Counted from the stretch's first letter, positions 10,712 through 64,000 are shown. The stretch is DNA of 64,000 nucleotides from an uncultured Acidobacteriota bacterium (GCA_963836075.1 CAWIIB010000001.1:1856001-1920000), one strand, 5' to 3'. Notes: a model not told the origin generated them from the sequence alone. Numbers and translations are program-made.

Positions 10712-12719
10712 ATGAGAAAGCTCGGATCCATGAGCCCCTTTAACGGCATCCTCCTCACCCTGATCTTCTTCTTGGTCACCGGCTGTTTCGCCGCCACCCA
10801 GGTTGCACTGGCAGAAAGCGGATCAGGCGTTGTCACGCCTTCGGTCTCGGCGACCGAGACCGCGAGCAATACGCCCCTCCCGCCGTCAGCTTCCACGGTG
10901 CAGGTAAAGAGAAGTGCCCATGCCGAAGAGCTGCACGCAGCGCGTCTGGCCGGCGATCTGGCGGCGGTACAGGCCCTGGAAGCCTCAGCGTCAATCCAGC
11001 CTGCCGTTGGCGAGAATTGCGGTCAGCCCGCACTGCGCACAAGCGGCGCCGTCTGCGGATCCGGCGAACCACAGGTGACGGCCACCTCGAACAGGAAAGC
11101 CGCTGCCCCGTCAGACGGAGATCGGGCGACCTTCGGCGCGGATATTAAGGTGAGAACGAGCGACTACGACACCATGGAGATCAATCCCTCCATGGCTTCC
11201 GATTCGGACGGCAATCTCTACGCGGCCTTCCAGACCGATCTCTCCACCACCGGCTACTTCTACATCCAGCTGTACAGGTCCATCGACGGCGGCGTTACGT
11301 GGGATGGATACGGATTCGTGCTCGCCACGGACACTCACCTGCTGACCCCCTCCATCGCCATCGGTGAGGGGACCGCGGATACGCTGCTCCTGGCCTACAT
11401 CGTTGACGATGGATCGAGCACCCCCTACCCTGAAGTGGCCACCGCTCCACTGGGATCAAGCACCTTCACCATCCAGAAGCGTACCGTACGTCAGCACCTG
11501 GGAAGAGTATGCCAAGCCGGTCATCTGGACCGATGCCTACGAGTATCCGGGTTGGTTTGCCTATCTGACCTGCGAAGGGATCTATGATTCATCGGTCGAC
11601 AATATCAATGTCTGCTTCTGGCGCTCCATCGACTTGGGTGTCACCTGGAACTATCCGGCCAGCGGCGGCCCGGCGGTGATCGGGAATCTGGATGCATTCG
11701 CCTGGCTCGATGCCGACGGCACCTACGGCACGACGCAGAACAGGGTATTCCTCGCCTGTTACAACCAGACCGACAGCACGCTCTACAGCCTGGCCAGTGA
11801 TGATTTCGGCAACAACTGGGACGATACCCTCGACCTGAAGGCCATCAGCACCCTGCCCTACGATCCGTATTATCCCGTTGATCCGGACATCGAGGCGGCC
11901 GTTGCCTACGACCACGTGATGCTGGTCTGCACCCACGACCACGATTTCGACGGCCAGGACGACGACGACGTCGGCCAAACCTATTCCACCGATGCCGGGG
12001 AGACCTGGCCTAATCCGCTGTGGAATCTCAATGGGGCAACGGATGATCACGAATTCGGCGCGGACCTGAACGCCAACGAGGGGGGAGGCAGCTGGCACCT
12101 GACCTACACCCGGTGGGAGACCCCCGTCAACGATCACTTCGTCCAGTACAGCCAGCGCCAGCAGGACCTCGGCGACTACTGGCAGTCCTTCCCGGACGTG
12201 GTGGATGACCTGGCCCTGGCCAGTATCGGCTATTCCAAGAAGGGCATCGCCAGCAACTGGTCCACCGACGTGGCGGGAATCTGCTGGGCCGACTACCGGG
12301 ACGGCACACCCGACTACGACCTTTATTTCGACTACGACCGGGGGGGGGCGTCGGGGCCCACGGTGGCCTGTAGCTATTCCTGCAGCCCGAGCTCCGGCCA
12401 GCTGCCCTTCAGCACCCAGATGACCGTGAACATGACCAACCTCTACACCGGTTTCACCCGCACCATTTCCGGACGGATCAATATCAGTACCGCCGGCGGC
12501 GGATACATCAGCAATTGGCGCGCGGGATTCACCAACATCCCGGCCGGTGGAACCTTCACCAGATCCTGGAACCAAAACCTCCCCGCCCTGGGAGCACTAT
12601 ACGGAACCAACTACTTCTACATCTACGCCATGGACACCACCGCGAGCCCGTATAACCAGCCGCCATACCCCGCCTCGGGGGATACGGATATCGCAACCTG
12701 TCTTATCGTGGGGAACTGA
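10712..12719 (+). pseudogene. Secreted Asp-box (BNR)/sialidase-like propeller protein with the conserved C-terminal domain, split by a +1 frameshift at ~11477 (pseudogene or sequencing error)
   Basis: Removing one A from ATCCAGAAGCGTA joins ORF 10631..11587 to ORF 11364..12719 (...FTIQ-SVPYVSTWEEY). Asp-boxes RSIDGGVTW, RSIDLGVTW, SDDFGNNW, STDAGETW. GGGAG RBS before ATG 10712. Confidence 0.8.
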
Positions 12720-12732
12720 TCCTGTCGATCCA

Positions 12733-12762
12733 TGGGGGAGGGGGCATTGCCGCCCCCTCCTC
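12733..12762 (+). terminator. Hairpin after the BNR/CTD gene
   Basis: GGAGGGGGC...GCCCCCTCC inverted repeat 14 nt after the stop; weak U-tract. Confidence 0.5.
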
Positions 12763-12891
12763 TGTATCACCCGTGCCCACCGGCTCAGAACTCCCAGTCC
12801 TGGCCCAGACCCGGCAGGTCCATGTCCCGGTTGTCGTTGAGGAGGCAGCTTCGTTCGCCGGCGGTTGGCGGGATCAAGGAATTGCACCCAA

Positions 12892-12927
12892 TAAAACAAA
12901 CGCCCCGGCAACAGGGTGCCGGGGCGT
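12892..12927 (-). terminator. Intrinsic terminator of fadL
   Basis: ACGCCCCGGCA...TGCCGGGGCGT stem followed by TTTGTTTT on the minus strand. Confidence 0.75.
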
Positions 12928-12960
12928 GAATCGGTCATTCGGGTGACGGTCCGAACCGTC

Positions 12961-14572: not shown

Positions 14573-15223
14573 CTACTTCTGCTTCCACTGGCCGTCGGGC
14601 ATCTGGATCCAGTCTCCGGCCCTGGCATCCCCGCGCAGGGTGGCGGCGTAGGTTTCCTTGATCCGCTCCAGCTGGGAGAGATCCACGTTCTTCGCCGCGG
14701 CGATCTCTTTGAACAGCTGCTCGCGGTCCCGGTTCTCGTCCTTGATCAGCCGCTGCACCTCCGCCCGCTGCTTGAGATCCTTCATTGACTGCAGTTCCCG
14801 GGGAGCCAGCAGGGCGTCGTTGCCCTCACCGACCACGCCCATGTTCTTGAACTTCCTGATCCCCGGCAGGCGGGCGGCACGGGAATCGATGATGCGGCGG
14901 ATGGCCGGGTTGGTGATCTCGGGCCGCGACACCTCGTCGGCGTATGCCGGGGTCACGCCCAGCAGCAGGTCGAACAGACCGGCGGAGTTGGGGGCCGCCT
15001 CTCCTTCTCCGGTTGCCGGCACCGCGTCAACTTCACTCTCGCCCTGGGGCTCGGCAACGGCCGTCTCGGCGGCCTCGGCGGCCTTGAGCGCCACCTCCTC
15101 CTCGATCTGCTCCGAGATGTCCTTGATCGCCGCCTCGGGGAAATAGACGTTGATCGTGACGCAGGCGATGATCAACAGGGCGGCACAACCGGTGACGGTC
15201 AACAGGGTCATTCTGGTCTTCAT
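14573..15223 (-). CDS. YdbL/DUF1318-family lipoprotein (YnbE-like N-terminus)
   Basis: Lipobox IIAC then VTINVYFPEAA; GVVGEGNDALL...ENRDR...F.EIA...A.AGDWIQ..DGQW. Confidence 0.85.
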   Translation of the reverse strand: MKTRMTLLTVTGCAALLIIACVTINVYFPEAAIKDISEQIEEEVALKAAEAAETAVAEPQGESEVDAVPATGEGEAAPNSAGLFDLLLGVTPAYADEVSRPEITNPAIRRIIDSRAARLPGIRKFKNMGVVGEGNDALLAPRELQSMKDLKQRAEVQRLIKDENRDREQLFKEIAAAKNVDLSQLERIKETYAATLRGDARAGDWIQMPDGQWKQK

Positions 15224-15265
15224 GGCAAGTCTCCTTTTCCTCCAGTGGGATATGTTCAGTATACC

Positions 15266-18694: not shown

Positions 18695-18778
18695 CGAACG
18701 CTTCCGAGAAGTGGCAGGCGTGAATGCAACAGTATGAGGAGGTGCACTCTTATGATTATCAGGCCCCCTTTGTTGCAA

Positions 18779-19450: not shown

Positions 19451-19452
19451 GC

Positions 19453-26014: not shown

Positions 26015-28528
26015 ATGAAGACCGTTCTCCGGATCTTTTTTGTTCTCGCCATGACCGCGGCGGCCATGCTTCCGGCCCAGGCACAGGGCCCCTCCACTGG
26101 GATCGCCGGAGAAGGCCCTGATGGCTACCTGGATGCAGATTTGATCAGACCGGTGTCCGACCAGGATCCTGGTGTTCCCGCCGCCTCGCGCCTGGAGCTG
26201 CCCGGGGACTGGAGCTGGACCTATTACCGCCCGACAAACACCGGCATCCAGGGTGATTGGAGTGGAGCGCTCTGGATCGACCCCGAAGGCGCACCTTATA
26301 TCGCGGCCTACAATCCCTTCTGGGAAGAGGGGGGCCTGGCTCGTTTCATCGAGGCCGAAAACCGCTGGGAGAATTTTTCCAATGTCGACTACCCGGAGAT
26401 CGGGGATCCGGATATCACCGGATCCGCCCGGATCGAGACCATCAGCACCGCCGAGGACGGCTCCCTCTGGATGGTGACCTGGAACTCCGTGCTTCATTTC
26501 GATCCCGACGGCGGGGCGGCCCCCTTCCGGCGTTACGATGAGTTCAACTCCCCCTTGCCGGGCGGCAGGGCCGGAGACATCGGCATCGCACCCGACGGCA
26601 CGGTCTGGAGCGCATGGCAATCGACCAGCGGCGGCGGGGGTCTGGTGCGTCACGATCCGGCCACCGATGACTGGACCGTCTGGGATGCGGTCTCCACCGC
26701 CAACGACTGGCCGGGCTGGGCCCACATCACCCATGCGGCGATCCAGCCGAAACCGGGCGGCGGCTACTACGTTCGGCTGAAAGACACCTTCTACGGTCTT
26801 GCGGTCTTCGACAGCGATACTCAGCTCTTCAGCCTGCTGCCGAGCAGCGGCACACCGGGCGAAATCGGAGGGCTGCTGCACAACAGCGTCGACGAAGCCG
26901 GCAACGCCTGGATGTTCCGGGAGCAGTCCGGCTCGGGTTGGTCCCTGGACTACCGGCGCCCTGACGGCAGCTGGGTGACCCCCCCTGCAGTCTACCCGGC
27001 CTACTATGGACTGACGGCCTTCCAGGCCTTCGGCGACACGCAGGCCCTGATGGTCGCCGCGGGAGCCGAGGTCTGGCACTTCGACGGCCTCAACTGGTCG
27101 AGCCTGGGCGACTGGCCCTCGCTCTCCTCAATCGTGGGGGGACTCGGCATGGATGCAGACGGCAACGTCTGGGTCTCGGGGTCCGGCGGCGCCGCGCGCC
27201 TCGACGCCGGAACCGGCCAGTGGCAGCGCCACCGGATCACCAACTCGTCGCAGATCGACATGTGGGTCCGGGACATCAGTTTCGGGGAAAATGGCGACGT
27301 CTGGGTCACCGGCAACGCCGGTCCGGGCTATGGAGGCTTCGGCGTCTTCGACGGCCTTCGCTGGTACAACTTCAACGATTACACCTACGGCCTGGGCGGT
27401 GACTGGGGCTTCAACACCGACAATACGGACGCCATCACCTATCGCCCGTCCACCGGGGCCGTGGCACTCAATCCCATGTTCAATGGAATCCACGAATGGG
27501 ATGGCTCGGCCTACAAAATGCTCGAGCCCGGATCTCAGATCGACGGCCTCACCGAGGACTCCCTCGGCCGGCTCTGGATCATGGGCAACTACTTCAGCCT
27601 GCGCTACCATGACGGAACCGGCTTCACCGACGTCCCCATCCTGGGCTGGGGCGCCAACGTGGTGCCGGATCCGGACCGGCCGGGCACGGTCTGGGCCTGC
27701 GCCAACGGCGAGGTGGTCCGCACCGATGGCGAGTACCTTTTCTCACGCACGACCAGCGACCTGCCCGAACTGAACCCGCTGCACGACGTCTTCACCACCG
27801 TGGCGGTGGACCGCAACGGCGTGGCCTGGGTCGGCAGCACCGAGGGCCTGTTCCGTCTCGATGCGGAGACCGGCACGCACCAGTGGTGGCACTCGAGCAA
27901 TTCCGCACTGCCCGGCGACCAGGTCACGCCATTGGCGGTGACGCCGGACGGACGAGTGTGGTTCACCAATTTCAACAGTTTCGGCATCGAAGCCTCGCTG
28001 GTCTGGTTCGACGGCAACGAGTTCGGCACGATCACCCGGGACGAGGGCTTGCCTCACGCCCAGATCTACGATGGCGAGGCACGCGCCGTGCCGGGCGGGT
28101 ACGAACTCTGGATCTCCTGCGCCAGCCGCGGCATCGCGGTGCTCAACGTACCCTTCAGCAATACGGTGGCAGCCGGCTACAGCTGCACCCCGGATTCGGG
28201 AACGGTGCCCTTTGCCACCACCATGACCGTCCGACTGGACAACCTGTCACCCGACTCCAACCGCCGGATGGCGGCCCGGCTCGACGCGGCGCTGGCCGGC
28301 GGAATGACCGTCACCGGCTGGCGCAACGGATTCACCAACATCTCCCCCTCGAGCTCGTTCCAGACCTCGTGGAACCAGGCCATTCCGGCCGTCGGCGGTG
28401 TGATCGGCAACAACGTGTTCACCCTCGTCGCCGAGGACGTGACCCCGCCGCCGTTCAACCAGCCGCCGTATCCTCCCGCCGGGGATACGGACAGCGCGGC
28501 CTGCACCGTGACGGGCGTATCGCCATAA
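26015..28528 (+). CDS. Secreted multi-beta-propeller protein (two-component-regulator-propeller-like blades) with the conserved C-terminal domain
   Basis: Signal peptide ending AQA; repeated D.DG.VW and NS.LP motifs; CTD at ~28166-28528. Confidence 0.85.
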   Translation: MKTVLRIFFVLAMTAAAMLPAQAQGPSTGIAGEGPDGYLDADLIRPVSDQDPGVPAASRLELPGDWSWTYYRPTNTGIQGDWSGALWIDPEGAPYIAAYNPFWEEGGLARFIEAENRWENFSNVDYPEIGDPDITGSARIETISTAEDGSLWMVTWNSVLHFDPDGGAAPFRRYDEFNSPLPGGRAGDIGIAPDGTVWSAWQSTSGGGGLVRHDPATDDWTVWDAVSTANDWPGWAHITHAAIQPKPGGGYYVRLKDTFYGLAVFDSDTQLFSLLPSSGTPGEIGGLLHNSVDEAGNAWMFREQSGSGWSLDYRRPDGSWVTPPAVYPAYYGLTAFQAFGDTQALMVAAGAEVWHFDGLNWSSLGDWPSLSSIVGGLGMDADGNVWVSGSGGAARLDAGTGQWQRHRITNSSQIDMWVRDISFGENGDVWVTGNAGPGYGGFGVFDGLRWYNFNDYTYGLGGDWGFNTDNTDAITYRPSTGAVALNPMFNGIHEWDGSAYKMLEPGSQIDGLTEDSLGRLWIMGNYFSLRYHDGTGFTDVPILGWGANVVPDPDRPGTVWACANGEVVRTDGEYLFSRTTSDLPELNPLHDVFTTVAVDRNGVAWVGSTEGLFRLDAETGTHQWWHSSNSALPGDQVTPLAVTPDGRVWFTNFNSFGIEASLVWFDGNEFGTITRDEGLPHAQIYDGEARAVPGGYELWISCASRGIAVLNVPFSNTVAAGYSCTPDSGTVPFATTMTVRLDNLSPDSNRRMAARLDAALAGGMTVTGWRNGFTNISPSSSFQTSWNQAIPAVGGVIGNNVFTLVAEDVTPPPFNQPPYPPAGDTDSAACTVTGVSP

Positions 28529-28682: not shown

Positions 28683-30263
28683 ATGCGCACCACCCATTTC
28701 CTTTTCATCGCCATAATGACCGGTCTTGTCGCCATTGCGCCTCCGGCCTGGGGGCAGGTGATCAACGAGGATCTCAAGGTAGTGGGAAGCGGCGGAGCCA
28801 CAGGTGACGAGTTCGGCTATTCCCTCGCCATCGACAACGGCCTCCTCGTCGTGGGGGCGCCCTACAGCGACGACAACGGTCTCGATTCCGGTGCGGCGTA
28901 TCTGTTCCAGGCCTCCACCGGAGCCGAATTGTTCATGCTGACCCCGGCCGACGGCGCGGCGGGAGACGGGTTCGGCTTCTCCGTCGCCATCGCGGGCGGC
29001 ATCGTCGCGGTGGGTACGCCCGGAAAGGGTGACAACGGCGCCGACTCCGGCGCAGCTTACCTGTTCGACGCTTCCACCGGGGCGCAAATCGCCAAACTCC
29101 TGCCCAGCGACGGCGCGGCGGGGGACGAGTTCGGCAATTCAATTGCCATCGATAATGGCATCGTTGCCGTCGGAGCCTGGCGAGCTGACGAGTATGGCGA
29201 CGGCTCTGGCGCGGCGTATCTCTTTGATGCGTCAACGGGGAATCAGCTAGACAAACTGTTGCCGGACACGGGCAACAACTATCAGACCTTCGGCGTATCG
29301 ATCGCCATGGACGCCGGGATCGTTGCCATCGGAGCGCGTACATACTTTGTCCTTGGTGAGGGCTATACCTTTGCCAAAGCGTATCTGTTCGATGTGTCTT
29401 CGGGGAATCAGCTCAACGTGCTTCAGGCGGATATCGAGAACTACAACGGAGATCTGGGTGGCCAGTTCGCCGATAGCATCGATATCGATAACGGCTTGGT
29501 CGCCGTGGGAGCTCCGTTCAGGAGCGTCTTCTTCGACTTCTCTGGCGCTGCATACATATTTGATGCCTCGACGGGAGAGCAACTCCACTTCATCTTCCCC
29601 GCCGACGGCCACGACCGGGACCACTTCGGCGCCTCGATTTCCATCGACAACGGCGTCCTTGCGATTGGTGCGGATGAGGACGACGACAGCGCCTGGAGCG
29701 CCGGCTCCGCGTATCTCTATGACGCCGCCGACTTCACGCTGATCGACAAGCTCCTCGTGAGCGACGGGGCGGAATTCGATCTCTTCGGATCTTCCATTGC
29801 CATCGACAACGGCCTTGTTGCTGCCGGGGCGATTGGTTTTGGAGGCAGCGGAACCGAGACAGGTTACGTGGGCGTGTTTTTTGCACAGCCCACGACCACC
29901 GTCTCCGCCTCGCTGAACTGCCTGCCGTCCTCGGGCATGGTGCCCTTTGCCACCACCATGACCGTGCAGCTGGAGAACCAGTCCCCTGACTCCACCCGCC
30001 GGGTGGCGGCAAAGCTCAATGCCGCGCTGGCCGGCGGGCAGACCGTCGCCGGCTGGCGCAGCGGGTACACCAACATCGCCCCCTCGGGCTCGTTCCAGGC
30101 CTCGTGGAACCAGGTCATCCCGGCTGTCGGCGGTGTGATCGGCATCAACGTCTTTACCATCGTTGCCGAGGACGTTACCCCCGCACCGTTCAATCAGCCG
30201 CCGTACTCTGCCGCCGGGGATACGGACAACGCGGCCTGCACCGTGACGGGCCTGGCTCCCTGA
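28683..30263 (+). CDS. Secreted FG-GAP repeat protein with the conserved C-terminal domain
   Basis: Signal peptide ending AWG; seven DEFG.S.AID...VGA...SGAAYLF repeats; CTD at ~29901-30263; AAGGAG RBS. Confidence 0.9.
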   Translation: MRTTHFLFIAIMTGLVAIAPPAWGQVINEDLKVVGSGGATGDEFGYSLAIDNGLLVVGAPYSDDNGLDSGAAYLFQASTGAELFMLTPADGAAGDGFGFSVAIAGGIVAVGTPGKGDNGADSGAAYLFDASTGAQIAKLLPSDGAAGDEFGNSIAIDNGIVAVGAWRADEYGDGSGAAYLFDASTGNQLDKLLPDTGNNYQTFGVSIAMDAGIVAIGARTYFVLGEGYTFAKAYLFDVSSGNQLNVLQADIENYNGDLGGQFADSIDIDNGLVAVGAPFRSVFFDFSGAAYIFDASTGEQLHFIFPADGHDRDHFGASISIDNGVLAIGADEDDDSAWSAGSAYLYDAADFTLIDKLLVSDGAEFDLFGSSIAIDNGLVAAGAIGFGGSGTETGYVGVFFAQPTTTVSASLNCLPSSGMVPFATTMTVQLENQSPDSTRRVAAKLNAALAGGQTVAGWRSGYTNIAPSGSFQASWNQVIPAVGGVIGINVFTIVAEDVTPAPFNQPPYSAAGDTDNAACTVTGLAP

Positions 30264-41281: not shown

Positions 41282-41282
41282 C

Positions 41283-43891: not shown

Positions 43892-44206
43892 ACTTCCTAG
43901 CGAAACCCAATAACCGCCTTGTTCTGTAGATCATACGCATAATCGTCACCGACGAAATCGTCACCGAATTACAATATTGAAAGTGCCCCACCAGCAAAAC
44001 GCCAACAGGGTGATTGTTCACCGGTCAACGAAATGACATTTCACTTTTAATCAATTCATTCAAAACAACTTGCCTGATACTGCACGGGGGCGCTGGAGAG
44101 CCGTCATCATGGTATGAATCTTGTATCCTATTAGACTGATAATCACTGTGGTATATGTAGGATTCAACTGATACCCATTTGATGTGAACTGGTGAAGGAG
44201 ATCATC

Positions 44207-46957: not shown

Positions 46958-46959
46958 AG

Positions 46960-53421: not shown

Positions 53422-55146
53422 ATGAAGAAGTATTTCCTGATTTTCGCCCTGGTGATCTGTTTCTGTTCCTGGGGTGCCGTGGCCGACGAGACCACCTGTT
53501 TCCCCACGGCTGCCGCTGACAACACCGGCTCCACCGACGGCGCGACCATCACCGACTCGAGCATGATCCGTGGTTACAGCATGGAGGATGGCTGGGCCAA
53601 GTTTGACGTGTCCGCCATTCCTGACACCAATACGGTGACCCAGGTCGACTTCAACTTCTATGTGAACAGCACGTACCATCCCTACTGGAGCACCACTCCG
53701 GTGACCATCGATCCGGTGGGCGCCGACCCGGCCGCACTCGCCAGTGACATCACTGCCGAAGCGAGCACCGGCTACTACAACTATCAGAACGAGTCGAGCA
53801 CTTACGCTCCTGGGTGGAAAACGCTGACCCTGGGCGGCAATGCCGTGGCCGACATAAACGCCGCCCTGGCCGGCGACGCATTCACGGTGGGTATCGCCAG
53901 CCGCGACAACAGCACGACCTACTACATCATCATGGACGGCTGGAACGAGGCCAACGCGCCCTACTTGGTAGTGACGCACACCGCCGATGAGATCTGCTTC
54001 CACGACGGTTGCTCGGACGCCTATCCCATCGCATCCGGCGAGCTGTTCCAGGGCAGGAACTGTGCCTGCACCGACGACTTCCAGGATTACGCTTGTGCCC
54101 CCTGGAGCTTCCTCGGACCGGACCAGGTGTTCACCATCGACCTGGAATGCACCGGCACCCAGATCGACGTGAACTGCACGCCGACCGACGGGTGGGATCC
54201 GGCCATCGCCATCGGTTTTGAGTGCTCAAACGGGAACCTGGTCTGCCTCGCCGCCGCGGACGCGGGATTTGGCGGTGATCCGGAGGCCATCAGCTATCTC
54301 ACCACCGTCGGTGAAGTGGGTACTCTCTACATCTTCGTCGATTCCTACTATTCAGGAGGAGGCCTGGAATGCGGCGATTATGACCTGACCGTTACTTTGG
54401 ACAACGGCATTCCCAACGACGTCTGCACGGACGCCATCCCCGTGGCCGTGCCCTCGGTGACCCACGGCACCACCGATTGCGCCACGTTCGACGGGGCGCC
54501 GCTCTGCGTGACTTCGCAGACCGCGCCAGGTGTCTGGTACTCGGTTATCGGCACGGGCGTCACCATGTATGCCGAAACCTGCGGTCCCACCTACTGGTAT
54601 GATACCAAGATCTCGGTATTCACCGACGGCTGCGACACGCTGACCTGTGTCACCGGCAACGACGACAACTGCCCGGACGGCGCCAGCGGACTGCTGAGCG
54701 GTGTCCTGTGGGACAGCGTCGAGGGGCAGGAGTACCTGATCCTGGTGCACGGCTTCAGTTCTGCCACCGGTGAGTTCGACCTCTATGTGGATTCCGATGT
54801 GGTGGACACCTTCGACGTGACCATCACCTGCGTCACGCCGTCTGTTGTAATTCCCGGCATGGTGAGCCTGAGTGTCGACGTGACCAACCTCACCGACGCG
54901 CCGATCACCGTGAGCGGCCACGTGGACGCCACCCTCTGCAACGGCGTCGAGGTAGGACCGATCCGCAACGGTTTCCTCTACCTCAACCCGTTCGAGACCA
55001 AGGCCATCGCGTGGACACAGGGGCTTTGGGCGGCCAATCCCAGGACCTGCGACTGTGATCTGATCTGGACGGTCTACGCACAGGATGATGCAACGCTCGT
55101 CGAAAAGACGAACTCCTGCGTCATCTCCACGACGTGCCCTAAATAG
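53422..55146 (+). CDS. Secreted Cys-rich multidomain protein (DNRLRE/CBM-like domain + PPC-like domains) with a divergent C-terminal domain
   Basis: GGAGG RBS; signal peptide; KFDVSAIPD...PYLVVT; NDVCTDAI, GVWY, DTKISVF, NDDNC motifs. Confidence 0.85.
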   Translation: MKKYFLIFALVICFCSWGAVADETTCFPTAAADNTGSTDGATITDSSMIRGYSMEDGWAKFDVSAIPDTNTVTQVDFNFYVNSTYHPYWSTTPVTIDPVGADPAALASDITAEASTGYYNYQNESSTYAPGWKTLTLGGNAVADINAALAGDAFTVGIASRDNSTTYYIIMDGWNEANAPYLVVTHTADEICFHDGCSDAYPIASGELFQGRNCACTDDFQDYACAPWSFLGPDQVFTIDLECTGTQIDVNCTPTDGWDPAIAIGFECSNGNLVCLAAADAGFGGDPEAISYLTTVGEVGTLYIFVDSYYSGGGLECGDYDLTVTLDNGIPNDVCTDAIPVAVPSVTHGTTDCATFDGAPLCVTSQTAPGVWYSVIGTGVTMYAETCGPTYWYDTKISVFTDGCDTLTCVTGNDDNCPDGASGLLSGVLWDSVEGQEYLILVHGFSSATGEFDLYVDSDVVDTFDVTITCVTPSVVIPGMVSLSVDVTNLTDAPITVSGHVDATLCNGVEVGPIRNGFLYLNPFETKAIAWTQGLWAANPRTCDCDLIWTVYAQDDATLVEKTNSCVISTTCPK

Positions 55147-56588: not shown

Positions 56589-58955
56589 ATGAGAATCGAC
56601 AACCGTTTCAAGGGGGGCATGGCTCTCAGGTGGGCGATGACCCTGGCCTTTCTCCTGATCCCACCCTCACCGGCATCGACGATAGCATTTGCCGGCGCCG
56701 GTCTCGACCAGGATACCGGATCCATCATTCTGCTCAAGTATGGCGCATTCAATCCCCTGGTTGGCGAACCGGAGGTGCCGGCCGAGCTCACCTCCGAGAC
56801 CGTTAGTAGCATCAGGCTGGTCCAGGTATCCGGCCCGCTCACCTCACCGGAAATTCTTTCCCTGGAGGACGCCGGGGCCACTCTGCTCAGCTACGTACCG
56901 GAAAATACATACCTGGCCCACGTCCCGCCTCAGGCACTCCCGCGTCTCCGGGCCCTGCCCGTGGTCCTGTGGGTGGGTCACTATCATCCCGCCTATAAAA
57001 TTCAAGCCGGGTTGCTCGAGCGGGAGGAGGCGCAGATCGAGATCAACATACTGCTCTTCCCTCAGCTGGCCGAAGAGAATGATCGGATAGCGCTGGGTGC
57101 CGAGATTGCATCTCTGGGGGGGCAACTCACCTTCCAGGAGGAGCTGTCCCACGTTCTTCGTGCCACCGTTCCACCGGCTGCGGTGATTTCACTGGCCAAA
57201 CTCCCCCAGGTTCATTGGATCGACCGCTACGATCCACCGCGAAAGGACATGGACGCTGTCCGCGAGATGATCGGGGCCACCTCGGTGTTTACTTTCGGCT
57301 TTGACGGCACCGGTATCACCGGCGCGGTAAAGGACGCGGGAATCGATCCGACTCATCCCGACTTCGGGAATCTCATCGGCACCCAGGGAAATCCAGGGGT
57401 GGACGAGCATGGTACCTGCACCTTTGGCATCGTTTTTGCCGACGGGACCGATAGCGTCCAGGCCATGGGAATGATGCCCGGAGGAGACGGGGTTTTCTGC
57501 AACTGGGACTGGGGCCGGAACTGGTCGATTCACGACCTGTTCCATTCCTATGGGGGGGTCTTTCAGTCCAACAGCTGGAGTCAGGGCCTGCATAACGGGG
57601 ACTACACCAGTTACTCCGACTCGAACGACGGCGCCATCAACAGCTATGATGTGTCCATGCTCTACTCTGCTGGAAACAGCCCGGTCAGTGTGGGGGCCGT
57701 CACCATTTCCCAGGATTCAGCAGCCAAAAACGTAATCTGTGTCGGCGGTGTATTTCACAAGGGCGACACCAACCAGGACAACGATGAGTGGCACAACTAT
57801 TTTGGGGCCGGGACCACACCCAGCCAGGGCCCGGCGGCCGACGGCCGGATCAAACCCGATCTCTGCGGCTATGTGGACTTAATCTACACCACTGATATTG
57901 TCGGCGCCGGCGGCTATACCTCCGGGAACTATGTCAGCGACTTTGGCGGAACCAGCGGGGCCTGTCCCATCGTGGCCGGTGCGGCGGGTCTGACCTATGA
58001 CATGTATATCGACAACCATTTCGGCAACAACACCGCCGGCGACACGCCACTGCCGGCCACAATCAAGGCACTGCTGATTGCCAACGCTTATCAGTACAGC
58101 CTCAGCGGTTCCTACTCCGCAACCCGCTACCAGCAGGGCTGGGGGGCACCTGACCTTGACCGGACCCACCAGGCAGGTTCCAATCAGGTCATTGTGGATG
58201 GCGGCACCGCCCTGAGTACCGGGGAAAGCTGGAGTACGGTCGTCACTCGTTACAGCGGCGCGGAGCCGTTGAAGATCTCTCTGGTCTGGAGTGATAAGGC
58301 CGGTGAAGCCTCGGCCTCGAAGGCGTTGATCAACGATCTGGATCTCATCGTGACCGCACCGGGCGGCTCTACCTTCCACGGCAACTATGGGCTTACCTAC
58401 AACCGGTATTCCACGGCCAGCGGTTCAGCCGACCGTCTGAACAACGTGGAAAATGTCTTCATCCAGTCCCCGGCCGAAGGCGACTACACCATTGAAGTTT
58501 TCGCCTACGACGTGGCCCTGGACAATCACCCCGACGCCGGGGTGAACCAGGATTTCTCACTGGTGGCCTCCATGGCCCTGGAAGGGGGGGCGAGCGATAC
58601 CATGCACGCAGTGATGGCTTGTGTCCCCACCTCGGGCACACTGCCCGCCACCGTCCAGATTCAGCCGCAACTGTGCAACGATGATTGGTTCACCCGCAAA
58701 CTTGCCGGTCATATCGATCTGACGATCGCCAACGGAGCAACTTACACCAACTGGCGCGCCGGCAATACCAACGTGGATCCCGGTGAATGTTATTACGGTC
58801 CGTTCAACATCAACCTGCCAAACCTCGGCACACTCAAAGGGGACAATATCTTTGTTCTGGTGGGTGAGGATGTAACGCCCCCGCCCTACAACCAACCCCC
58901 ATATTCCCCCGCCGGTGATTCGGACAGCGATGCCGGCACCTTCACCGGTTATTGA
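56589..58955 (+). CDS. S8 (subtilisin-like) serine peptidase with the conserved C-terminal domain
   Basis: Triad motifs KDAGID, DEHGTC, GGTSGACP; SAGN; SQGPAADGRIKPD; NDLDL...NNVENV domain; CTD at ~58602-58955; AAGGAG RBS. Confidence 0.93.
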   Translation: MRIDNRFKGGMALRWAMTLAFLLIPPSPASTIAFAGAGLDQDTGSIILLKYGAFNPLVGEPEVPAELTSETVSSIRLVQVSGPLTSPEILSLEDAGATLLSYVPENTYLAHVPPQALPRLRALPVVLWVGHYHPAYKIQAGLLEREEAQIEINILLFPQLAEENDRIALGAEIASLGGQLTFQEELSHVLRATVPPAAVISLAKLPQVHWIDRYDPPRKDMDAVREMIGATSVFTFGFDGTGITGAVKDAGIDPTHPDFGNLIGTQGNPGVDEHGTCTFGIVFADGTDSVQAMGMMPGGDGVFCNWDWGRNWSIHDLFHSYGGVFQSNSWSQGLHNGDYTSYSDSNDGAINSYDVSMLYSAGNSPVSVGAVTISQDSAAKNVICVGGVFHKGDTNQDNDEWHNYFGAGTTPSQGPAADGRIKPDLCGYVDLIYTTDIVGAGGYTSGNYVSDFGGTSGACPIVAGAAGLTYDMYIDNHFGNNTAGDTPLPATIKALLIANAYQYSLSGSYSATRYQQGWGAPDLDRTHQAGSNQVIVDGGTALSTGESWSTVVTRYSGAEPLKISLVWSDKAGEASASKALINDLDLIVTAPGGSTFHGNYGLTYNRYSTASGSADRLNNVENVFIQSPAEGDYTIEVFAYDVALDNHPDAGVNQDFSLVASMALEGGASDTMHAVMACVPTSGTLPATVQIQPQLCNDDWFTRKLAGHIDLTIANGATYTNWRAGNTNVDPGECYYGPFNINLPNLGTLKGDNIFVLVGEDVTPPPYNQPPYSPAGDSDSDAGTFTGY

Positions 58956-59319: not shown

Positions 59320-60723
59320 TCAGGGAGCAACGCCCACCACCACGTTGGCGCTGGTGCAGGTCGTTCCCGAAGCCGGATAGGGCGGCTGGTTGTAAGGAGC
59401 AGGCGTCACGTCCTCGGCGGTCAGTACAAAGGTGTTGCTGCCGATCACCGTGCCCGTTGCCGGGAGGTTGGCCGGAAACTGGATGGTGAAATTGCTCTGC
59501 GGCTGGATATCGGTGAAATTGGCACGCCACGGGTCGTAGACGTTGCCGTTGGCCAGGGTCACCGCAATCCGTCCGGCCACGCAGCGGAACCAGTCCGGTC
59601 CGCCGCTGTTCAGGTTGGACAAGGTGATCCGGTGGGTCATGGAGAAGGGCACCGTGCCCGACAGCGGAGTCACCGTGTAGTCGCAGTCAATGGGACCGGT
59701 GGCGAGGCAACTGATGTCCACCCCCAGTTCGAAGGTGCCGACACCGCCGTCAGTGCGACTGTCGACAATGATGTAGTAAGTCTGGGTGGAGGTCTGGCTG
59801 TAGCAGAAAACCTCGTCCTCACCACCGGCCAACCAGCCGCTGGCGCCGGCCACGCAGGTGCCGTTGACATCAGCGCAGTCAGTGACCATGTAGACACCGC
59901 CGTTCCAGGTCATCACGCTCTGGTTGAGCGTGACGCAGACTTCGCAGTGGCCCGGCAATGTGATGATGTAGGTCACGTCCTTGCCGGCATGGTCCAAACC
60001 GCCGACGCAGGCCGCGGTACAGTCGTAGTCGTTGGTGGCCAGGGTGATGTCACCGGTGTAGCTGCTGCTGCCGGGGGTGCCCGGGATCACGATGGCTCCG
60101 GCGCAGGTATCGTTGGCCGGCGGCGGCGTATCGGTGACCACCAGGTAGGGCACGTTGGCGCCGGTGTGGCCGTCGATCTCCAGGTAGTAGGTGGTGGTCG
60201 TGTCACGGCTGGCAGCACCGATGGTGAACCAGTCCTGGGCCAGGGCAGCGGTGAGATCGGCGTTGGCCGTGCCGCCCAGCGCCAGCGTCTTCCAGCCAAC
60301 ATCGTAGGTGGAAGACTCGTTCAGGTAATTGTAATAACCAGCAATTATCTCAGCCTGGGCATCGTCCCAGAGCAGGGCGGCGGTGGAATCGATGGGCACC
60401 GGGTCGAGGTCCACCGGCGTCACACTCCAGTAGGGCCAGTTGGTGTTGTTGACGTAGAAGTTGAATACCAACCCGGTAACTGTTGTGCCATCGGGTATCG
60501 AGCTGATGTCAAACTTGAAGAACGCGGTTTCCATCCGGGTGGTGCCGGTGGAAGCGCCGCCGTAGACCAGGGCCTCACCGTCGGTCTTGACGTCGTAGGT
60601 GGTGGTGCCGGTGGTGAAATCCTCCGTGGTGGGGTAGACCGTCCAGGTTGCGGCCATGGCGCCGATATCCAGAACGGGCAGGCAAAGGAATAGGATGGCC
60701 AGACTCGTCAATGTTTTGAGCAT
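59320..60723 (-). CDS. Secreted protein (DNRLRE/CBM-like + PPC-like domains) with the conserved C-terminal domain; paralog of 53422..55146
   Basis: Signal peptide; KFDISSIPD...NESSTY..GWKTL.LGG...PYLVVT; PPANDTCAGAI; CTD; GAGG RBS. Confidence 0.88.
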   Translation of the reverse strand: MLKTLTSLAILFLCLPVLDIGAMAATWTVYPTTEDFTTGTTTYDVKTDGEALVYGGASTGTTRMETAFFKFDISSIPDGTTVTGLVFNFYVNNTNWPYWSVTPVDLDPVPIDSTAALLWDDAQAEIIAGYYNYLNESSTYDVGWKTLALGGTANADLTAALAQDWFTIGAASRDTTTTYYLEIDGHTGANVPYLVVTDTPPPANDTCAGAIVIPGTPGSSSYTGDITLATNDYDCTAACVGGLDHAGKDVTYIITLPGHCEVCVTLNQSVMTWNGGVYMVTDCADVNGTCVAGASGWLAGGEDEVFCYSQTSTQTYYIIVDSRTDGGVGTFELGVDISCLATGPIDCDYTVTPLSGTVPFSMTHRITLSNLNSGGPDWFRCVAGRIAVTLANGNVYDPWRANFTDIQPQSNFTIQFPANLPATGTVIGSNTFVLTAEDVTPAPYNQPPYPASGTTCTSANVVVGVAP

Positions 60724-60901: not shown

Positions 60902-60986
60902 ACAATAGATCGGCTATTTTGCTGGGATCGTTTTCTGGATGCGCTACGAGGCCTGCCCGATCAATGTCGCTGTTTCACCCGATCGT

Positions 60987-62564
60987 TCACGGAGCGATCC
61001 CCGTCACCGTGCAGGAGTCGGTATCAGTGTCGCCCGACGGCGGGTACGGGGGTTGGTTGAAGGGCGCAGGGGTCACGTCCTCGGCCACCAGCGTGAACTC
61101 GTTTCTCCCAATCACCGACCCGAGGGCCGGGATGTTCCGGGGCCAGGACGTGGTAAAGCTGTCTCCGGGCGGAACGCTCAAGAATCCGGTTCGCCAGTTC
61201 GGGAGAGACTGGCCGCCGGCGAGCTCGACATCGATACGGCCGGCAAGAGTCCGGGACTGGCTTGGGTGCCGGTTCGAGACCGTCACCGACAGATCCGTCG
61301 TGAAGGGCACCGTGCCGAACGTCAGGGAACTGGTCAGAACCGACTCCACCATCCGGCCGGGGTAGTGGTATCCCATGTCCACCTGCCCGGCGTCGTCGAC
61401 GAAGTCGGTGCGGGTCGGGCGCTGGTCGAGGCAGACAGTCCCCTCGCCACTGTCGAAGCAGATGTCCGCTGACGGTTCGCTCCCGGCATCCAGACACGGG
61501 CTGTCCTCGGCCTGCCCCGCGGCTACCTGGCTGAAGTAGTAGTTGCCCTCGGGTCCGGCAAAGAATAGCGGATCGGCGTCGATGTTTCCCTCGCCCGGCC
61601 AGCCGCCCTGAACGTCGGAGTAGGAGACGATCGAGGAGCCCGATGCGTCATGGATGCTGTCCGGGCTGTTGTTCCAGACGATGCAGTTGGTGATTGTAGT
61701 TGAGCCCCAGCAGGCGATCCCACCACCGTCACCAGCTACGTTTCCACTGAAGGTGCAGTTGGTGATCGTCGTTGAGTCCCCGCAGCTGATCCCACCACCG
61801 TCATTAGCTACGTTTCCACTGAAGGTGCAGTTGGTGATCGTCGTCGATTGCCAGCAGGCGATCCCACCACCCCTAGAATATCCATACAAACCCCCATGTG
61901 CCACGTTAGCGCTGAAGGTGCAGTTGGTGATCGTCGGCGAGGAGGCGTCAATGCAGCAGACCCCACCACCGTCACCAGATAGTTCATACCCATAATACCA
62001 ATCAAGTGCGTGGTTAGCGCTGAAGGTGCAGTTGGTGATCGTCGGGGAGGAGTGGACGCAGAAGATCCCACCACCATAATGAGCTACGTTTCCACTGAAG
62101 GTGCAGTTGGTGATCGTTGGCGAGGAGAAGGCGCAAAAGATCCCACCACCATACTCTTCAGCGGTGTTATCACTAAAGGTGCAGTTGGTGATCGTCGGGG
62201 AGGAGCCGTCGCATAAGATCCCACCACCACCCCAAGCTTCTCCGTTGCGGATCGTGAATCCGTCCAGCACCGAATCCTGCTCCTCACCGTTTGTGAAATG
62301 GAAGCCTCTGCCTTGCTCCTCACAATCTATGATGCAATTCTCCGACCCGCTCTCCGCCCTGACTGTTATCGCCTTGCCGCGGAAGCCAATGTCGCGGTTG
62401 CCTGAACCAGTGTATGTACCATCGGAAACCAGCACTATGTCACCGTCTACAGCGGCATCGATCCCCGCCTGGATGGTGGGCTGGTCGCCGGGGACGTAGA
62501 TCATGGCTGCTGCGGCCACTAGGGGAAAGCAGAGTATCAGGAAAATGGGTATTGTGCGTTTCAT
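60987..62564 (-). CDS. Secreted right-handed beta-helix (Pmp-like GGGI/FxxN repeat) protein with the conserved C-terminal domain
   Basis: VPGDQPTIQAGIDAA; seven GGG(I/V).C...TITNC repeats; GNIDADPLF; SPCLDAG; DMGYHY; CTD; GGAGG RBS. Confidence 0.92.
   Translation of the reverse strand: MKRTIPIFLILCFPLVAAAAMIYVPGDQPTIQAGIDAAVDGDIVLVSDGTYTGSGNRDIGFRGKAITVRAESGSENCIIDCEEQGRGFHFTNGEEQDSVLDGFTIRNGEAWGGGGILCDGSSPTITNCTFSDNTAEEYGGGIFCAFSSPTITNCTFSGNVAHYGGGIFCVHSSPTITNCTFSANHALDWYYGYELSGDGGGVCCIDASSPTITNCTFSANVAHGGLYGYSRGGGIACWQSTTITNCTFSGNVANDGGGISCGDSTTITNCTFSGNVAGDGGGIACWGSTTITNCIVWNNSPDSIHDASGSSIVSYSDVQGGWPGEGNIDADPLFFAGPEGNYYFSQVAAGQAEDSPCLDAGSEPSADICFDSGEGTVCLDQRPTRTDFVDDAGQVDMGYHYPGRMVESVLTSSLTFGTVPFTTDLSVTVSNRHPSQSRTLAGRIDVELAGGQSLPNWRTGFLSVPPGDSFTTSWPRNIPALGSVIGRNEFTLVAEDVTPAPFNQPPYPPSGDTDTDSCTVTGIAP
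61670..62230 (-). repeat. Intragenic tandem repeats (beta-helix rungs)
   Basis: GTGCAGTTGGTGAT core recurring with CCCACCACC. Confidence 0.85.
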
Positions 62565-63001
62565 GCTTCACCTCCATTAGCAGTGCGCAATGAGGGATAA
62601 AGAACTCGGGCACCCTGAGACGACGACGGCTATCGCACGCTGTGTGGGACGCTTGGCACCTTCATACTGTCGAACGGGTTCAGTTGAGTGAAGATAAGGT
62701 CAATATATTGAGCAGTAAGCGTAAATTCAAGGCATTAAGGGAAGATGGTATTCCGAAACGAACATAGCATTCAGGAGCCGAACAGAAAAGATAAATATTC
62801 CGATGGGATTGTCCATTTGATGATTAAGGAAATCAGTGCTTCGCCAAATACTCCTTTATCGCCTCCTCGAGCAGCGAGCCGGCGGTCTTGTCCATCTTCA
62901 GCGCCAGTATCTTCATCTCCCGCCATAGCTCGGAGTCCATATGACGTCGTTTCTAAGAGACCATTGCTGGCGGCCTCACCAGGCTAACGTTGTATACAAT
63001 T

Positions 63002-63014
63002 TAAGTTGTTGAAA
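63002..63014 (-). promoter_or_regulatory. IHF-like site (one mismatch)
   Basis: TTTCAACAACTTA at the same distance from the upstream stop codon as the 60889 site. Confidence 0.4.
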
Positions 63015-63099
63015 ACAAAAGATTGACGTTTTACGCCCAGTCGACTATTGGCTATTGTGCCTCGACGAATTGATCAATGTCGCCGTTTCACCCGACTGT

Positions 63100-64000
63100 C
63101 TACGGCGCTATCCCGGTCACAATGCAATGGTCAATGACCCGGTCACCCGCTGGTAGGTAGGGCGGCTGGTTCCATGGGGCTGGTGTCACATCCTCGGCAA
63201 CCACAGTGAAGACGTTATCCCCGACCAGGGGACCTAAATTCGGGATGTTCTGGTTCCAGGACGTATAGCAGCTTTCACCACTTGCAAGGGTGGTCAGTCC
63301 TGCTCGCCAGTTGAAATAGAAGGTGCTGCTGGCATAGGTGACCTGGATGCGTCCCGCAATTCTGCGAGTCTGACCGGCGTGGTTATTCGTTAGTGTTGCA
63401 GTCATTTGGGTCGTAAATGGCAAGGAGCCCGAGGCTGGGGCGCAGGTCAACTCTGCCGAGATGATTGTTGGAGGGCTCACGTTGATGAGTATGGCGACCT
63501 GGTCGGTCGTTATCGCAACGGCCAGATCCGGGGCACCGTCGCCATTCAGATCTCTAATGGCGACCGAACTGGGATCATAAGAGACCCCGTATTCCACCGC
63601 GGTCTGAAAGGTGCCGTTCCCATTGCCCAGGAGCACGGAAACATGATGAGAATTGTCATTTGCCGTAACCAGGTCCGGAACACCGTCTCCATCCAGGTCG
63701 TCAATGGCGACTGACACAGGTTGGCTACTGACACCGTAATTCACCGCGGCATCAAAAGTTCCGTCTCCATTGCCCAGCAGCACCGAAACATTGTCGTCGG
63801 TCCAATTCGCAACTACCAGATCCGGGTTGCTGTCGCCGTTCAGGTCTTCGATTACAACTGACCGAGGATAATTTCCGACCCCGTAATTCACCGCAGGCTG
63901 GAAGGTGGCGTCCCCATTGCCCAGGAGTATGGAAACGTTGTCAGAATCAAAATTCGCCACGGCCAGGTCCGGGGCGCCATCACCATCCATGTCGTCGATG
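63100..64000 (-). CDS. FG-GAP/VCBS repeat protein with the conserved C-terminal domain (5' end outside the window)
   Basis: D.(N/D)GDG.PDL..AN....VS.LLGNG.GTF repeats; CTD at ~63100-63462. Confidence 0.9.
   Translation of the reverse strand, partial: IDDMDGDGAPDLAVANFDSDNVSILLGNGDATFQPAVNYGVGNYPRSVVIEDLNGDSNPDLVVANWTDDNVSVLLGNGDGTFDAAVNYGVSSQPVSVAIDDLDGDGVPDLVTANDNSHHVSVLLGNGNGTFQTAVEYGVSYDPSSVAIRDLNGDGAPDLAVAITTDQVAILINVSPPTIISAELTCAPASGSLPFTTQMTATLTNNHAGQTRRIAGRIQVTYASSTFYFNWRAGLTTLASGESCYTSWNQNIPNLGPLVGDNVFTVVAEDVTPAPWNQPPYLPAGDRVIDHCIVTGIAP

Follow-up and report, generated by a model that had tools for sequence, protein, structure and literature searches.

Why do seven unrelated proteins encoded on one stretch of bacterial DNA end in the same domain? 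The stretch, hereafter the window, comprises 64,000 nucleotides from an uncultured Acidobacteriota bacterium. A shared domain of about 120 residues caps seven unrelated proteins in it, each copy directly preceding the stop codon (Table 1). An earlier note on this DNA had read the arrangement as a new sorting or anchoring system. What it predicted on copies, placement, cargo, range, novelty and fold agrees with the results described below, and of the explanations considered, such a system is the most plausible one that we infer from these features. The functional part of the claim is an interpretation, and the searches described below yielded no partner.

Copies of the domain in the window

Table 1. 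Copies of the C-terminal domain (CTD) in the window, with the genes that carry them
Copy	Position	Strand	Gene	Protein ended by the copy	Remarks
1	12357..12716	+	10631-12719	Asp-box (BNR-type) protein	
2	28166..28525	+	26015-28528	837-aa Reg_prop propeller protein	signal peptide
3	29901..30260	+	28683-30263	526-aa FG-GAP_2 protein	signal peptide
4	58593..58952	+	56589-58955	788-aa Peptidase_S8 protein	
5	59323..59682	-	59320-60723	467-aa protein without Pfam family	C3/C109 Cys arrangement
6	60990..61349	-	60987-62564	525-aa Beta_helix/PMP-repeat protein	both Cys missing
7	63103..63462	-	63100->64000	FG-GAP_3 (VCBS-type) protein	gene start past window end
8 (diverged variant)	54799..55143	+	53422-55146	574-aa protein	signal peptide

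Translations and alignment uphold the positions of the seven copies and their extreme C-terminal placement on unrelated signal-peptide proteins. Alignment of these copies revealed 22 invariant columns, N-Q-P-P-Y among them, at an identity to the first copy of 45-74%; copies 2 and 3, which end adjoining genes, are 74% identical to each other. Signal peptides had been claimed for six of the genes, and the N-termini are indeed signal-peptide-like in the five intact genes and also in the sixth (BNR), which is interrupted near 11461-11472 by a frameshift. Asp-box motifs are visible in the translation of this latter gene, and a DNA-level search of it against the sister genomes matched only the part that codes for the domain.

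An eighth, diverged copy lacks the NQPPY loop and carries extra Cys. It is tied to the family by an hhalign comparison of alignments A2 and A3 (99.2% probability), and the passenger of its gene resembles that of the 59320 gene. As the loop-less variant is kept in all three genomes that bear the domain, the NQPPY loop is not indispensable.

Copy number, placement and distribution

The 6.2 Mb genome, 94.7% complete, is that of an uncultured sediment bacterium. It encodes 191 full-length copies in 190 ORFs, so that about 4% of its 4507 ORF-genes (a crude set) carry the domain. At least 139 and at least 112 scored matches were found in two sister species, in line with the expectation of many copies per genome. 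The domain was present in 3 of 31 and 3 of 151 sampled genomes of the phylum, all three belonging to one genus, and only 501 matches were obtained among 1.84 billion protein representatives; the anticipated taxonomic restriction is thus confirmed.

Two descriptions in the earlier note need softening. The domain was said to lie always at the extreme C-terminus, and nearly always it does: 185 of the 191 copies end within two residues of the ORF end, and placement is terminal in 76 of 78 loci of the two sister MAGs and, among 165 public proteins of the family, in 161, leaving a few exceptions. It was also said to be always single, which applies to most proteins (157 of the 165 public ones), but two copies occur in 1 of 190 ORFs of this genome and in 8 of the 165 public proteins, seven of these as a C-terminal tandem.

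Cargo proteins and export signals

The passengers form a varied set of extracytoplasmic kind. When 92 cargo proteins were scanned, 38 carried families such as FG-GAP, beta-helix, S8, C1, M28, GH5, BNR, CBM96 and LamG; in no case did a catalogued family fall on the C-terminal domain itself. Signal-peptide-like N-termini were found in 105 of 149 gene-called cargo proteins starting with Met, as expected for a domain borne by exported proteins. By a cruder heuristic the count is 129 of 190 cargo ORFs compared to 851 of 2787 control ORFs. Both heuristics are crude, and ORF models in the assembly are affected by frameshifts.

Among the S8 proteases, homologues elsewhere in the phylum carry other C-terminal modules at the same position, which fits the expectation for swappable tags. 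Close paralogues of cargo passengers also exist without the domain, e.g. an S8 protease of genome G002 that ends in FG-GAP repeats; the domain is therefore not needed to export a passenger of the S8 type.

Fold and relation to catalogued families

The AlphaFold2 model of the domain is an eight-strand all-beta sandwich of Ig/CARDB-like type (pLDDT 97). Its structural neighbours include RbmA (Z 11.8), an Ig domain of AlkC (Z 11.1) and the CARDB structure 3idu (Z 9.9; rmsd 2.4 over 97 residues), the last a likeness at the level of the fold only, equalled by many further Ig-like families. In language-model space the nearest clusters are CARDB/DUF11, at 0.88-0.91, a lead only. The structure searches thus agree with the view that the fold is only generically Ig-like.

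The absence of a catalogued sequence match, likewise claimed before, was found in Pfam, NCBIfam and the PDB. Pfam and NCBIfam gave no match on the domain in the seven full proteins, nor with the seven isolated domains at E<=10; the NCBIfam sorting-signal models did not match it, and the best E-value in a PDB profile search was 0.44. A literature search on C-terminal sorting in Acidobacteriota, on PorU/PorV-type systems and on the NQPPY loop returned nothing on such a tag.

Comparison with known C-terminal modules is instructive in several cases. CARDB (PF07705) shares the E-set Ig-like fold but is usually internal or repeated, whereas the present domain is a single terminal cap. CARDB, PPC and PKD profiles did not match it even at E<=10, and PF07705 had no match in the whole genome, with controls responding in 7 of 14 cases. 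Dockerins are small Ca-binding helical modules of duplicated EF-hand type that occur on tens to hundreds of unrelated secreted enzymes and whose partner is the cohesin on scaffoldins; they are docking tags, not export signals. The domain resembles them as a single, mostly C-terminal module on many unrelated secreted proteins in a narrow set of organisms, and differs from them as an all-beta sandwich without Pfam match. PPC (PF04151), LPXTG, PEP-CTERM and GlyGly-CTERM are also lineage-specific C-terminal elements common to many secreted proteins; PPC and the tripartite sorting signals are removed or used during sorting. PPC is set apart by the lack of a profile match. The other three consist of a short motif, a hydrophobic helix and a basic tail, whereas the domain ends in a beta strand followed by ...G-x-A-P. 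Neither a hydrophobic helix nor an Arg/Lys cluster was found at its C-terminus in the window copies or the predicted structure, which bears out the earlier remark that it lacks the TM/basic tail of LPXTG or PEP-CTERM.

Conserved loop, cysteine pair and termini

Paralogues share a mean identity of only 47.6%. Even so, 22 columns reach a conservation of >=90%, clustering in the F-G loop with its near-invariant D-V-T-P-x-P-x-N-Q-P-P. Such conservation across paralogues of this divergence reflects purifying selection on a surface feature common to proteins with unrelated passengers. The earlier description of NQPPY as invariant holds for the seven window copies, and genome-wide N98 (186/191), Q99 (172/191), P100 (183/191) and P101 (186/191) are mostly kept; it fails for the Tyr, which lies outside the >=90% columns, and for the loop-less eighth copy.

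Two cysteines form a second shared feature. Of the 191 copies, 128 have both C7 and C113, 26 only C7, 8 only C113 and 29 neither of them; an alternative C3/C109 pair was found in seven copies. The concerted shift of both Cys by four residues in the same direction, as noted before for the 59320 protein, is confirmed. The covarying pair and its -4/-4 alternative suggest a disulfide, and hence an oxidising compartment.

Both ends of the domain are also marked. At the boundary between linker and domain, 162 of 190 copies have a Thr, as do 90% or more of the 78 rows in alignment A4; the ten residues preceding it model as flexible (mean pLDDT 65). Of 185 copies, 162 end in Pro, compared to 318 of 3624 control ORFs. 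Taken together, the Cys pair, the loop, the boundary Thr and the terminal Pro point, as sequence features, to one common extracytoplasmic partner.

Search for a machine or receptor

Among 477 ORFs neighbouring cargo genes no candidate for a recurring machine or receptor gene was found. Genes met there repeatedly encode FG-GAP proteins, Ser/Thr kinases, RND pumps, sigma-54 activators and sulfatases, and the largest cargo cluster is flanked only by regulators. A fragment-based scan for a cohesin-like repeat scaffold revealed none by eye in the best 45 of 277 internal-repeat proteins, which comprise proteins with FG-GAP-type repeats, other cargo and the multihaem cytochrome of the window. One protein with an internal copy (C9:2819390-2822476) was considered as receptor and rejected, as its appearance is that of two tandem paralogues fused by read-through.

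Two further candidates were suggested by their likeness to components of type IX secretion (T9SS). The PorU-like C25 peptidase was discarded as sortase, because a full-length ortholog is present in only one of the two sister genomes (G002 has no full-length match) and relatives occur in 13 of 28 genomes that lack the domain. Its gene lies next to a signal-peptidase-like gene and to that of a P-loop protein, with no T9SS genes as neighbours. The PorV-like barrel was discarded as receptor: it is an ordinary FadL-family protein that matches FadL/Toluene_X better, and its conservation within the genus (86-87%) equals the baseline (FeoB 89%, the FadL protein of the window 83-87%). Neither candidate tracks the domain. 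Across cargo neighbourhoods, PorU/PorV candidates and the repeat scan, no receptor, translocon, sortase or scaffold was found.

Proposed function and alternatives

We attribute to the domain the probable role of a lineage-specific C-terminal address tag, serving surface docking or outer-membrane sorting. The cargo would be exported by Sec via its N-terminal signal peptide, whereupon the last ~120 residues would fold in the periplasm into the eight-strand Ig/CARDB-like beta-sandwich, with a predicted disulfide linking the parallel first and last strands in most copies. A single envelope partner may then recognise the F-G loop (D-V-T-P-x-P-x-N-Q-P-P) together with N26, R33 and W52-R53, and probably also the free ...G-x-A-P-COOH end. 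Such a partner could hold the cargo on a lineage-specific surface structure, possibly a glycan, following the logic of dockerin and SLH modules. Alternatively, it could pass the cargo to an outer-membrane export or attachment step, T9SS-like in its logic but relying on a machine non-homologous to T9SS. The single partner, the destination of the cargo and any removal of the domain are what we infer from the domain and its bearers.

Docking is our tentative and slight preference between the two; a translocation signal is conceivable, though doubtful. A machine or receptor restricted to a single genus fits poorly with a dedicated new translocon, and the two-copy proteins (8/165) would be unusual for a pure secretion signal. 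There is also a modest chance that the domain is the cargo signal of a non-T9SS outer-membrane sorting or attachment pathway, as one of several interchangeable lineage-specific tags in Acidobacteriota, given that in other genomes of the phylum homologous proteases bear a different tag in this place.

The address-tag reading has to be weighed against a structural or protective cap without common partner, i.e. a stable, disulfide-clamped Ig-like domain that would have travelled by domain shuffling at 3' ends. Such a cap could stabilise, space or protect the proteins (for example against periplasmic C-terminal proteases), or be a folding aid trimmed after export like PPC/PKD/CARDB-type domains. 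The generic Ig/FnIII/CARDB/MG sandwich (RbmA, AlkC, 3idu) and the CARDB/DUF11 language-model neighbours are compatible with this, the terminal Pro could merely block exoproteases, and no partner was found. Moreover, the domains of neighbouring genes are more alike than those of distant genes (58.5% compared to 47.6%), which fits local shuffling. However, accessory Ig-like domains are usually internal and in tandem, whereas this one is single in 157/165 and terminal in 161/165 proteins. Stability alone would not lead one to expect a long, near-invariant surface loop over ~190 paralogues at 48% mean identity, and the CARDB, PPC and PKD profiles failed to match. A cap is considered unlikely.

Less probable still is a self-associating or matrix module, in which the domains would bind each other or a shared extracellular polymer and thereby build a surface layer or biofilm matrix out of ~190 proteins. 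The top structural neighbour, RbmA (Z 11.8), is a biofilm scaffold protein, but this likeness extends to the fold only and is equalled by many unrelated Ig-like domains. Two copies in 8/165 proteins, seven of them tandem and C-terminal, would raise avidity. The conserved W, R, N, Q, Y and D belong to the residue kinds often met in sugar-binding sites. A polymer partner is hypothetical, however, and the idea overlaps with the docking branch of the address-tag reading. A two-copy complex prediction scored 0.00 against a mark of 0.42, which bears neither way on self-association.

Finally, a highly diverged T9SS CTD, passing through a SprA/Sov-type translocon and with the PorU-like C25 peptidase as its processing enzyme, is very improbable: the logic of a Sec signal and a folded Ig-like CTD ending many diverse cargoes is the same, and the genome does encode a 914-aa C25 peptidase (PorU model, 201.9 bits) and a FadL-like barrel (PorV_fam, 48.9 bits), but these scores are far under the curated thresholds (420 and 90 bits), the PorU-like gene is distributed as described above, and no copy matches TIGR04183 or any Pfam/NCBIfam CTD model. 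The type A model TIGR04183 had no match genome-wide, a weak negative given that no positive control was available. SprA (TIGR04189), SprA_N (PF14349) and GldL (TIGR03513) were likewise unmatched in the 94.7%-complete genome, and these too are weak negatives, as none of 14 control genomes responded. Type A CTDs were detected in only 2 of the 31 sampled genomes of the phylum, one of them above the cut-off. T9SS CTDs are absent from the 50 matches listed by either structure search, but generic Ig-like matches fill both lists, and this observation weighs neither way.

The resemblance to the type A CTD (TIGR04183/PF18962) nevertheless deserves mention. Both are folded Ig-like sandwiches, by prediction in the present case, at the extreme C-terminus of Sec cargo, present once per protein and preceded by a flexible linker, and in both cases they are borne by very many unrelated proteins, such as proteases, propellers, beta-helices and proteins with adhesin-type repeats. 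In T9SS the CTD is cut off at its N-terminal boundary and the cargo becomes linked to anionic LPS; for the present domain, the boundary Thr (162/190) and the flexible linker are the sole hints of a similar cut. The present domain differs in its ~120 residues and eight strands, the solved T9SS CTD being described as seven-strand (PMC4804311), as well as in its predicted disulfide clamp, its NQPPY loop, its one-genus range and the lack of a family-model match. By the 31 genomes sampled, moreover, the phylum of the host does not count among those with T9SS.

Implications

Shared C-terminal tags have repeatedly led to sorting machineries, as for sortase, exosortase, rhombosortase and T9SS. In the bacterium studied here, ~4% of the genes carry one uncatalogued tag, and selection acts strongly on one of its loops and on its free C-terminus. 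The domain profile would be an immediate annotation marker for the secretome of this lineage. Discovery of the partner would explain how the lineage displays or releases a very large exoproteome, which comprises proteases, glycosidases and proteins with adhesin-type repeats. Should the pathway of interchangeable tags exist, it would amount to a phylum-wide secretion or surface-display system with swapped tags and an undescribed core machinery. Together with the other tags of the phylum, the domain could open protein export in Acidobacteriota to direct testing.

The shared C-terminal domain in the window

Translation of the window placed the same ~120-residue block (the tag) directly before the stop codon in all seven ORFs for which it had been claimed (see table). 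In the alignment of these copies (A1), identity to the first copy ranges from 45 to 74% and 22 columns are invariant, N-Q-P-P-Y among them. The proteins in front of the tag, i.e. the cargo, had been described as unrelated, and their Pfam assignments agree: a Reg_prop propeller, FG-GAP_2, Peptidase_S8, a protein without Pfam family, a beta-helix with PMP repeats, and FG-GAP_3. The first cargo gene contains Asp-box motifs of the Asp-box/BNR type. It is split by a frameshift: the alignment with its intact 647-aa homologue P0089 changes frame between ~11461 and ~11472. The claimed signal peptides were recognized as signal-peptide-like starts in five intact cargo genes, and also in the broken first gene.

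Although all seven copies listed by the earlier note are real, an eighth, diverged copy had been missed. It lacks the NQPPY loop and carries extra cysteines; the window's genome encodes six such variants (A3). Profile–profile comparison relates A3 to the canonical, loop-containing tag with 99.2% probability (E 3.6e-19, 109 columns), with an 11-residue gap falling exactly at the NQPPY loop.

Tag copies and other features of the window
Feature	Position	Strand	Remarks
Tag-ending ORFs	ORF ends 12719, 28528, 30263, 58955	+	from translation
Tag-ending ORFs	ORF ends 59320, 60987, 63100	-	from translation
First cargo gene	10631-12719		frameshifted
Eighth tag copy	54799-55143		ends 574-aa signal-peptide protein encoded at 53422-55146
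1170-aa ORF without Pfam family	14573-18778	-	directly upstream of DUF1318 gene
Four envelope-related genes	30340-36957	-	directly beside two cargo genes
Fe-S/FAD oxidoreductase, then two multihaem cytochromes (584 aa, 921 aa) and 546-aa protein without Pfam family	39977-48600

Three further regions of the window were noted. The layout of the 1170-aa ORF and the DUF1318 gene is reminiscent of the YdbH/YdbL envelope pair. The oxidoreductase and cytochrome genes may constitute an extracellular electron-transfer cluster; the second cytochrome shows an MtrC/MtrF-like domain match. The envelope-related genes encode a 964-aa protein with a C-terminal-only O-antigen-ligase (Wzy_C) domain, a GT2 glycosyltransferase, a B12-binding radical SAM protein and a GT9 heptosyltransferase. 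It is conceivable that this surface-polysaccharide cluster is the source of a tag ligand, but the adjacency may be due to chance.

Copy number, placement and cargo

The window's genome (6.23 Mb in 10 contigs) was translated into ORFs in all six frames and searched with a profile built from the seven copies. As predicted, there are many copies per genome, namely 191 full-length domains in 190 ORFs. The 27 further tag fragments, most of which resemble pieces of frameshifted genes, suggest many breaks like that of the first cargo gene, i.e. assembly indel errors or pseudogenes. The extreme C-terminal placement is equally pronounced, with 185 of 191 copies at most 2 residues from the ORF end. The six non-terminal cases comprise one two-copy ORF, one 1028-aa protein, two cases with 7–8 extra residues and two broken ones. 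The 1028-aa ORF (G000:C9:2819390-2822476; L083, P0173) holds the clearest internal tag of the genome, followed by a second passenger near-identical to the first; two tandem paralogues appear to have been fused by read-through. Across the two sister MAGs (78 loci) the ORF stops at the domain end in 76, with 6 or 12 extra residues in the other two. That the tag is always single proved too strict: one copy is present in 157 of 165 public family proteins, but eight contain two, as does one ORF of the genome. In seven of these eight the copies lie in tandem at the very end, and the last copy is at most 3 residues from the protein end in 161 of the 165.

For cargo assignment, 92 of the 165 family proteins (250–1300 residues, taken in id order up to a total of 50,000 residues) were scanned against Pfam at E<=1e-8; a family was present in 38 and none in 54. 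Beta_helix (10) and FG-GAP_2 (8) are followed by Peptidase_S8 (3), BNR_2 (3), FG-GAP_3 (2) and LTD (2), with one protein each for FGE-sulfatase, PQQ_2, SBBP, GH5 cellulase, Peptidase_C1, Peptidase_M28, CBM96, Laminin_G_3, DUF362 and Sortilin-Vps10. None of the families found in these 92 proteins is typical of cytoplasmic proteins, and none covers the tag itself. Cargo of the signal-peptide type is supported by a crude heuristic (a basic residue, then an uncharged hydrophobic stretch of at least 10 residues, inside the first 38), which was positive for 105 of 149 gene-called Met-starting family proteins; those failing it are mostly obviously truncated. A looser, also crude version applied to raw ORFs gave 129/190 for cargo vs 851/2787 for controls.

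Sequence conservation and fold

The 191 paralogues share a mean pairwise identity of 47.6%, with only 9 pairs at >=90%, and 22 columns are conserved at >=90%. In the long loop these include D91 (191 copies), T93 (190), P96 (187), N98 (186), P100 (183) and P101 (186); R33, W52, R53, G55 and N26 also exceed this level. Of the 185 terminal copies, 162 end in Pro and 110 in A-P; among control ORFs, a final Pro is found in 318 of 3624 (8.8%). Selection is strong on one surface loop of the tag and on its free C-terminal residue. At the N-terminal boundary, a Thr just before the first strand is found in 162/190 copies and in >=90% of the 78 rows of alignment A4, 71 of which stem from the sister genomes. 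In a model lengthened by 15 residues, order is low over the first ten (mean pLDDT 65), with the first strand beginning right after this Thr; neither a long linker nor a conserved motif was found further upstream.

Cysteines are present at both columns 7 and 113 in 128 copies, at column 7 alone in 26, at column 113 alone in 8 and at neither in 29 (Fisher p 2e-12, which overstates the case as the copies are kin). The concerted displacement reported for the 59320 copy was reproduced in its paralogue subgroup, where both cysteines have moved four residues N-terminally; the C3/C109 pair is found in 7 copies. Such a same-direction shift would be expected if a disulfide joined the first strand to a last strand running parallel to it, and a disulfide would imply folding outside the cytoplasm.

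AlphaFold2 (85-sequence alignment) predicts an all-beta domain of eight strands (pLDDT 97, pTM 0.85), in which an ordered 16-residue loop joins the last two strands. Simple up-and-down counting of the strands, following their order in this model, would put the N-terminal boundary at the same end of the sandwich as N26/R33 and the conserved loop, opposite the C-terminus.

As anticipated, the tag matched no catalogued family: whole proteins gave no Pfam or NCBIfam match on it, isolated domains searched against Pfam at E<=10 gave only one chance match (0.12), and the best E in a PDB profile search was 0.44. Structure comparison returned generic Ig-like sandwiches only, with Spo0M as best Foldseek match (E 8.5e-4) and, in VIA-align, RbmA (Z 11.8), the AlkC Ig domain (Z 11.1), CARDB 3idu (Z 9.9) and PKD (Z 9.1), with transglutaminase and complement MG domains at ~Z 10. 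Language-model neighbours, taken as a lead only, were CARDB/DUF11 clusters (0.88–0.91). Still, the CARDB profile had no match in the window's genome while it was positive in 7 of 14 control genomes. Because the fold matches without a profile match, the tag is CARDB-like in fold but not detectable as a CARDB family member. Full-text literature searches listed no description of the tag.

Taxonomic distribution

The predicted taxonomic restriction is narrow indeed. Among 31 genomes, i.e. the window's own and 30 relatives, matches were confined to the former and two species of the same genus (139 and 112 scored matches); the other 28, from 25 further families of the phylum, had none. The more divergent A3 profile, which still finds canonical copies at E 1e-12 to 1e-18, gave the same genus-only answer for the 31 genomes and matched 3 of 151 genomes from 105 genera of the phylum. 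These tallies include the unpublished genome G025, with no match for the tag, the type A CTD or A3 and one FadL-like match. Among 1.84 billion protein representatives, the tag profile matched 501 at E<=1e-3 and 358 at E<=1e-30. A pattern search across 185,579 species genomes yielded 159 confirmed stretches, the best 80 of which all fall in two MAG records (titled Acidobacteriota bacterium and uncultured bacterium).

Homologues of the S8 passenger in the window's tagged protease were sought in the 31 genomes. The ortholog in sister species G001 (64% identity) has kept the tag, and a paralogue in sister species G002 (62% identical) has FG-GAP repeats in its place. Distant homologues from other families of the phylum (L110-L114) carry other C-terminal modules: a short F-E-x-G...W-type tail in G007, thrombospondin-type and dockerin-like repeats in G006, and another Cys-containing domain in G003 and G021. 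The C-terminus of this protease family is thus a position at which the module varies from lineage to lineage, which fits interchangeable tags but also ordinary modular variation.

Search for a partner

Models for SprA (TIGR04189), SprA_N (PF14349), GldL (TIGR03513) and the type A CTD (TIGR04183) had no match in the genome; these are weak negatives, as control genomes also gave none. The type A CTD matched 2 of the 31 genomes, one above cut-off and neither in the tag's genus. A 914-aa C25 peptidase with C25 propeptide (G000:C1:1027244-1029985; L003/L085/L086) reached 201.9 bits with the PorU model vs a cut-off of 420. Its gene lies between a signal-peptidase-I/S24-like gene and one for a 355-aa P-loop protein, and its full-length ortholog in G001 is 65% identical. 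The peptidase does not track the tag, as a full-length match is missing in G002 and C25 relatives occur in 13 of 28 tag-free genomes. A PorV-like barrel (PorV_fam 48.9 bits vs cut-off 90; better matched by FadL/Toluene_X) was likewise discarded, its within-genus identity of 86–87% not exceeding the baseline of FeoB (89%) and the window's FadL (83–87%). Three secretin matches, two of them strong, indicate that a type II or pilus-type route exists.

Up to two genes away from cargo genes lie 477 ORFs, which recurrently encode other FG-GAP/beta-helix proteins (56), Ser/Thr kinases (10), RND pumps, sigma-54 activators and sulfatases. The ten kinase-family ORFs measure 415–1362 aa from stop to stop and possibly regulate the exoproteome. 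Just outside the window, seven cargo genes stand side by side as the largest such cluster, whose flank contains regulators.

Interpretation

None of these searches, whether for T9SS components, PorU/PorV-like proteins, secretins or cargo neighbours, yielded a partner of the tag, and a structural cap acting without one is a serious if unlikely rival. A single shared partner outside the cytoplasm, for which the tag would serve as an address, best accounts for the strict terminal placement, the mostly single copy, ~190 unrelated exported cargoes and the strong selection on loop and free C-terminal residue. Membership in the T9SS, whose CTD is described in PMC4804311 as a seven-strand Ig-like sandwich that is removed by PorU before the cargo is linked to A-LPS, is very improbable.

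Concerning the role of a common partner, we lean slightly towards retention on a surface structure, following dockerin/SLH logic, over outer-membrane translocation as in the T9SS. A lineage-specific surface glycan receptor would explain the genus-level range more easily than a new translocon; moreover, passengers of like type also occur untagged, some proteins bear two tags in tandem, and the conserved residues are of the sugar-binding type. Conversely, a processing or sorting role is kept alive by the Pro at the C-terminus and by the boundary Thr, which is conserved beside a flexible linker.

In summary, the tag is a real, uncatalogued family. Shared C-terminal tags are already known as a kind; in this one, the cargo set is unusually large and the taxonomic range very narrow.
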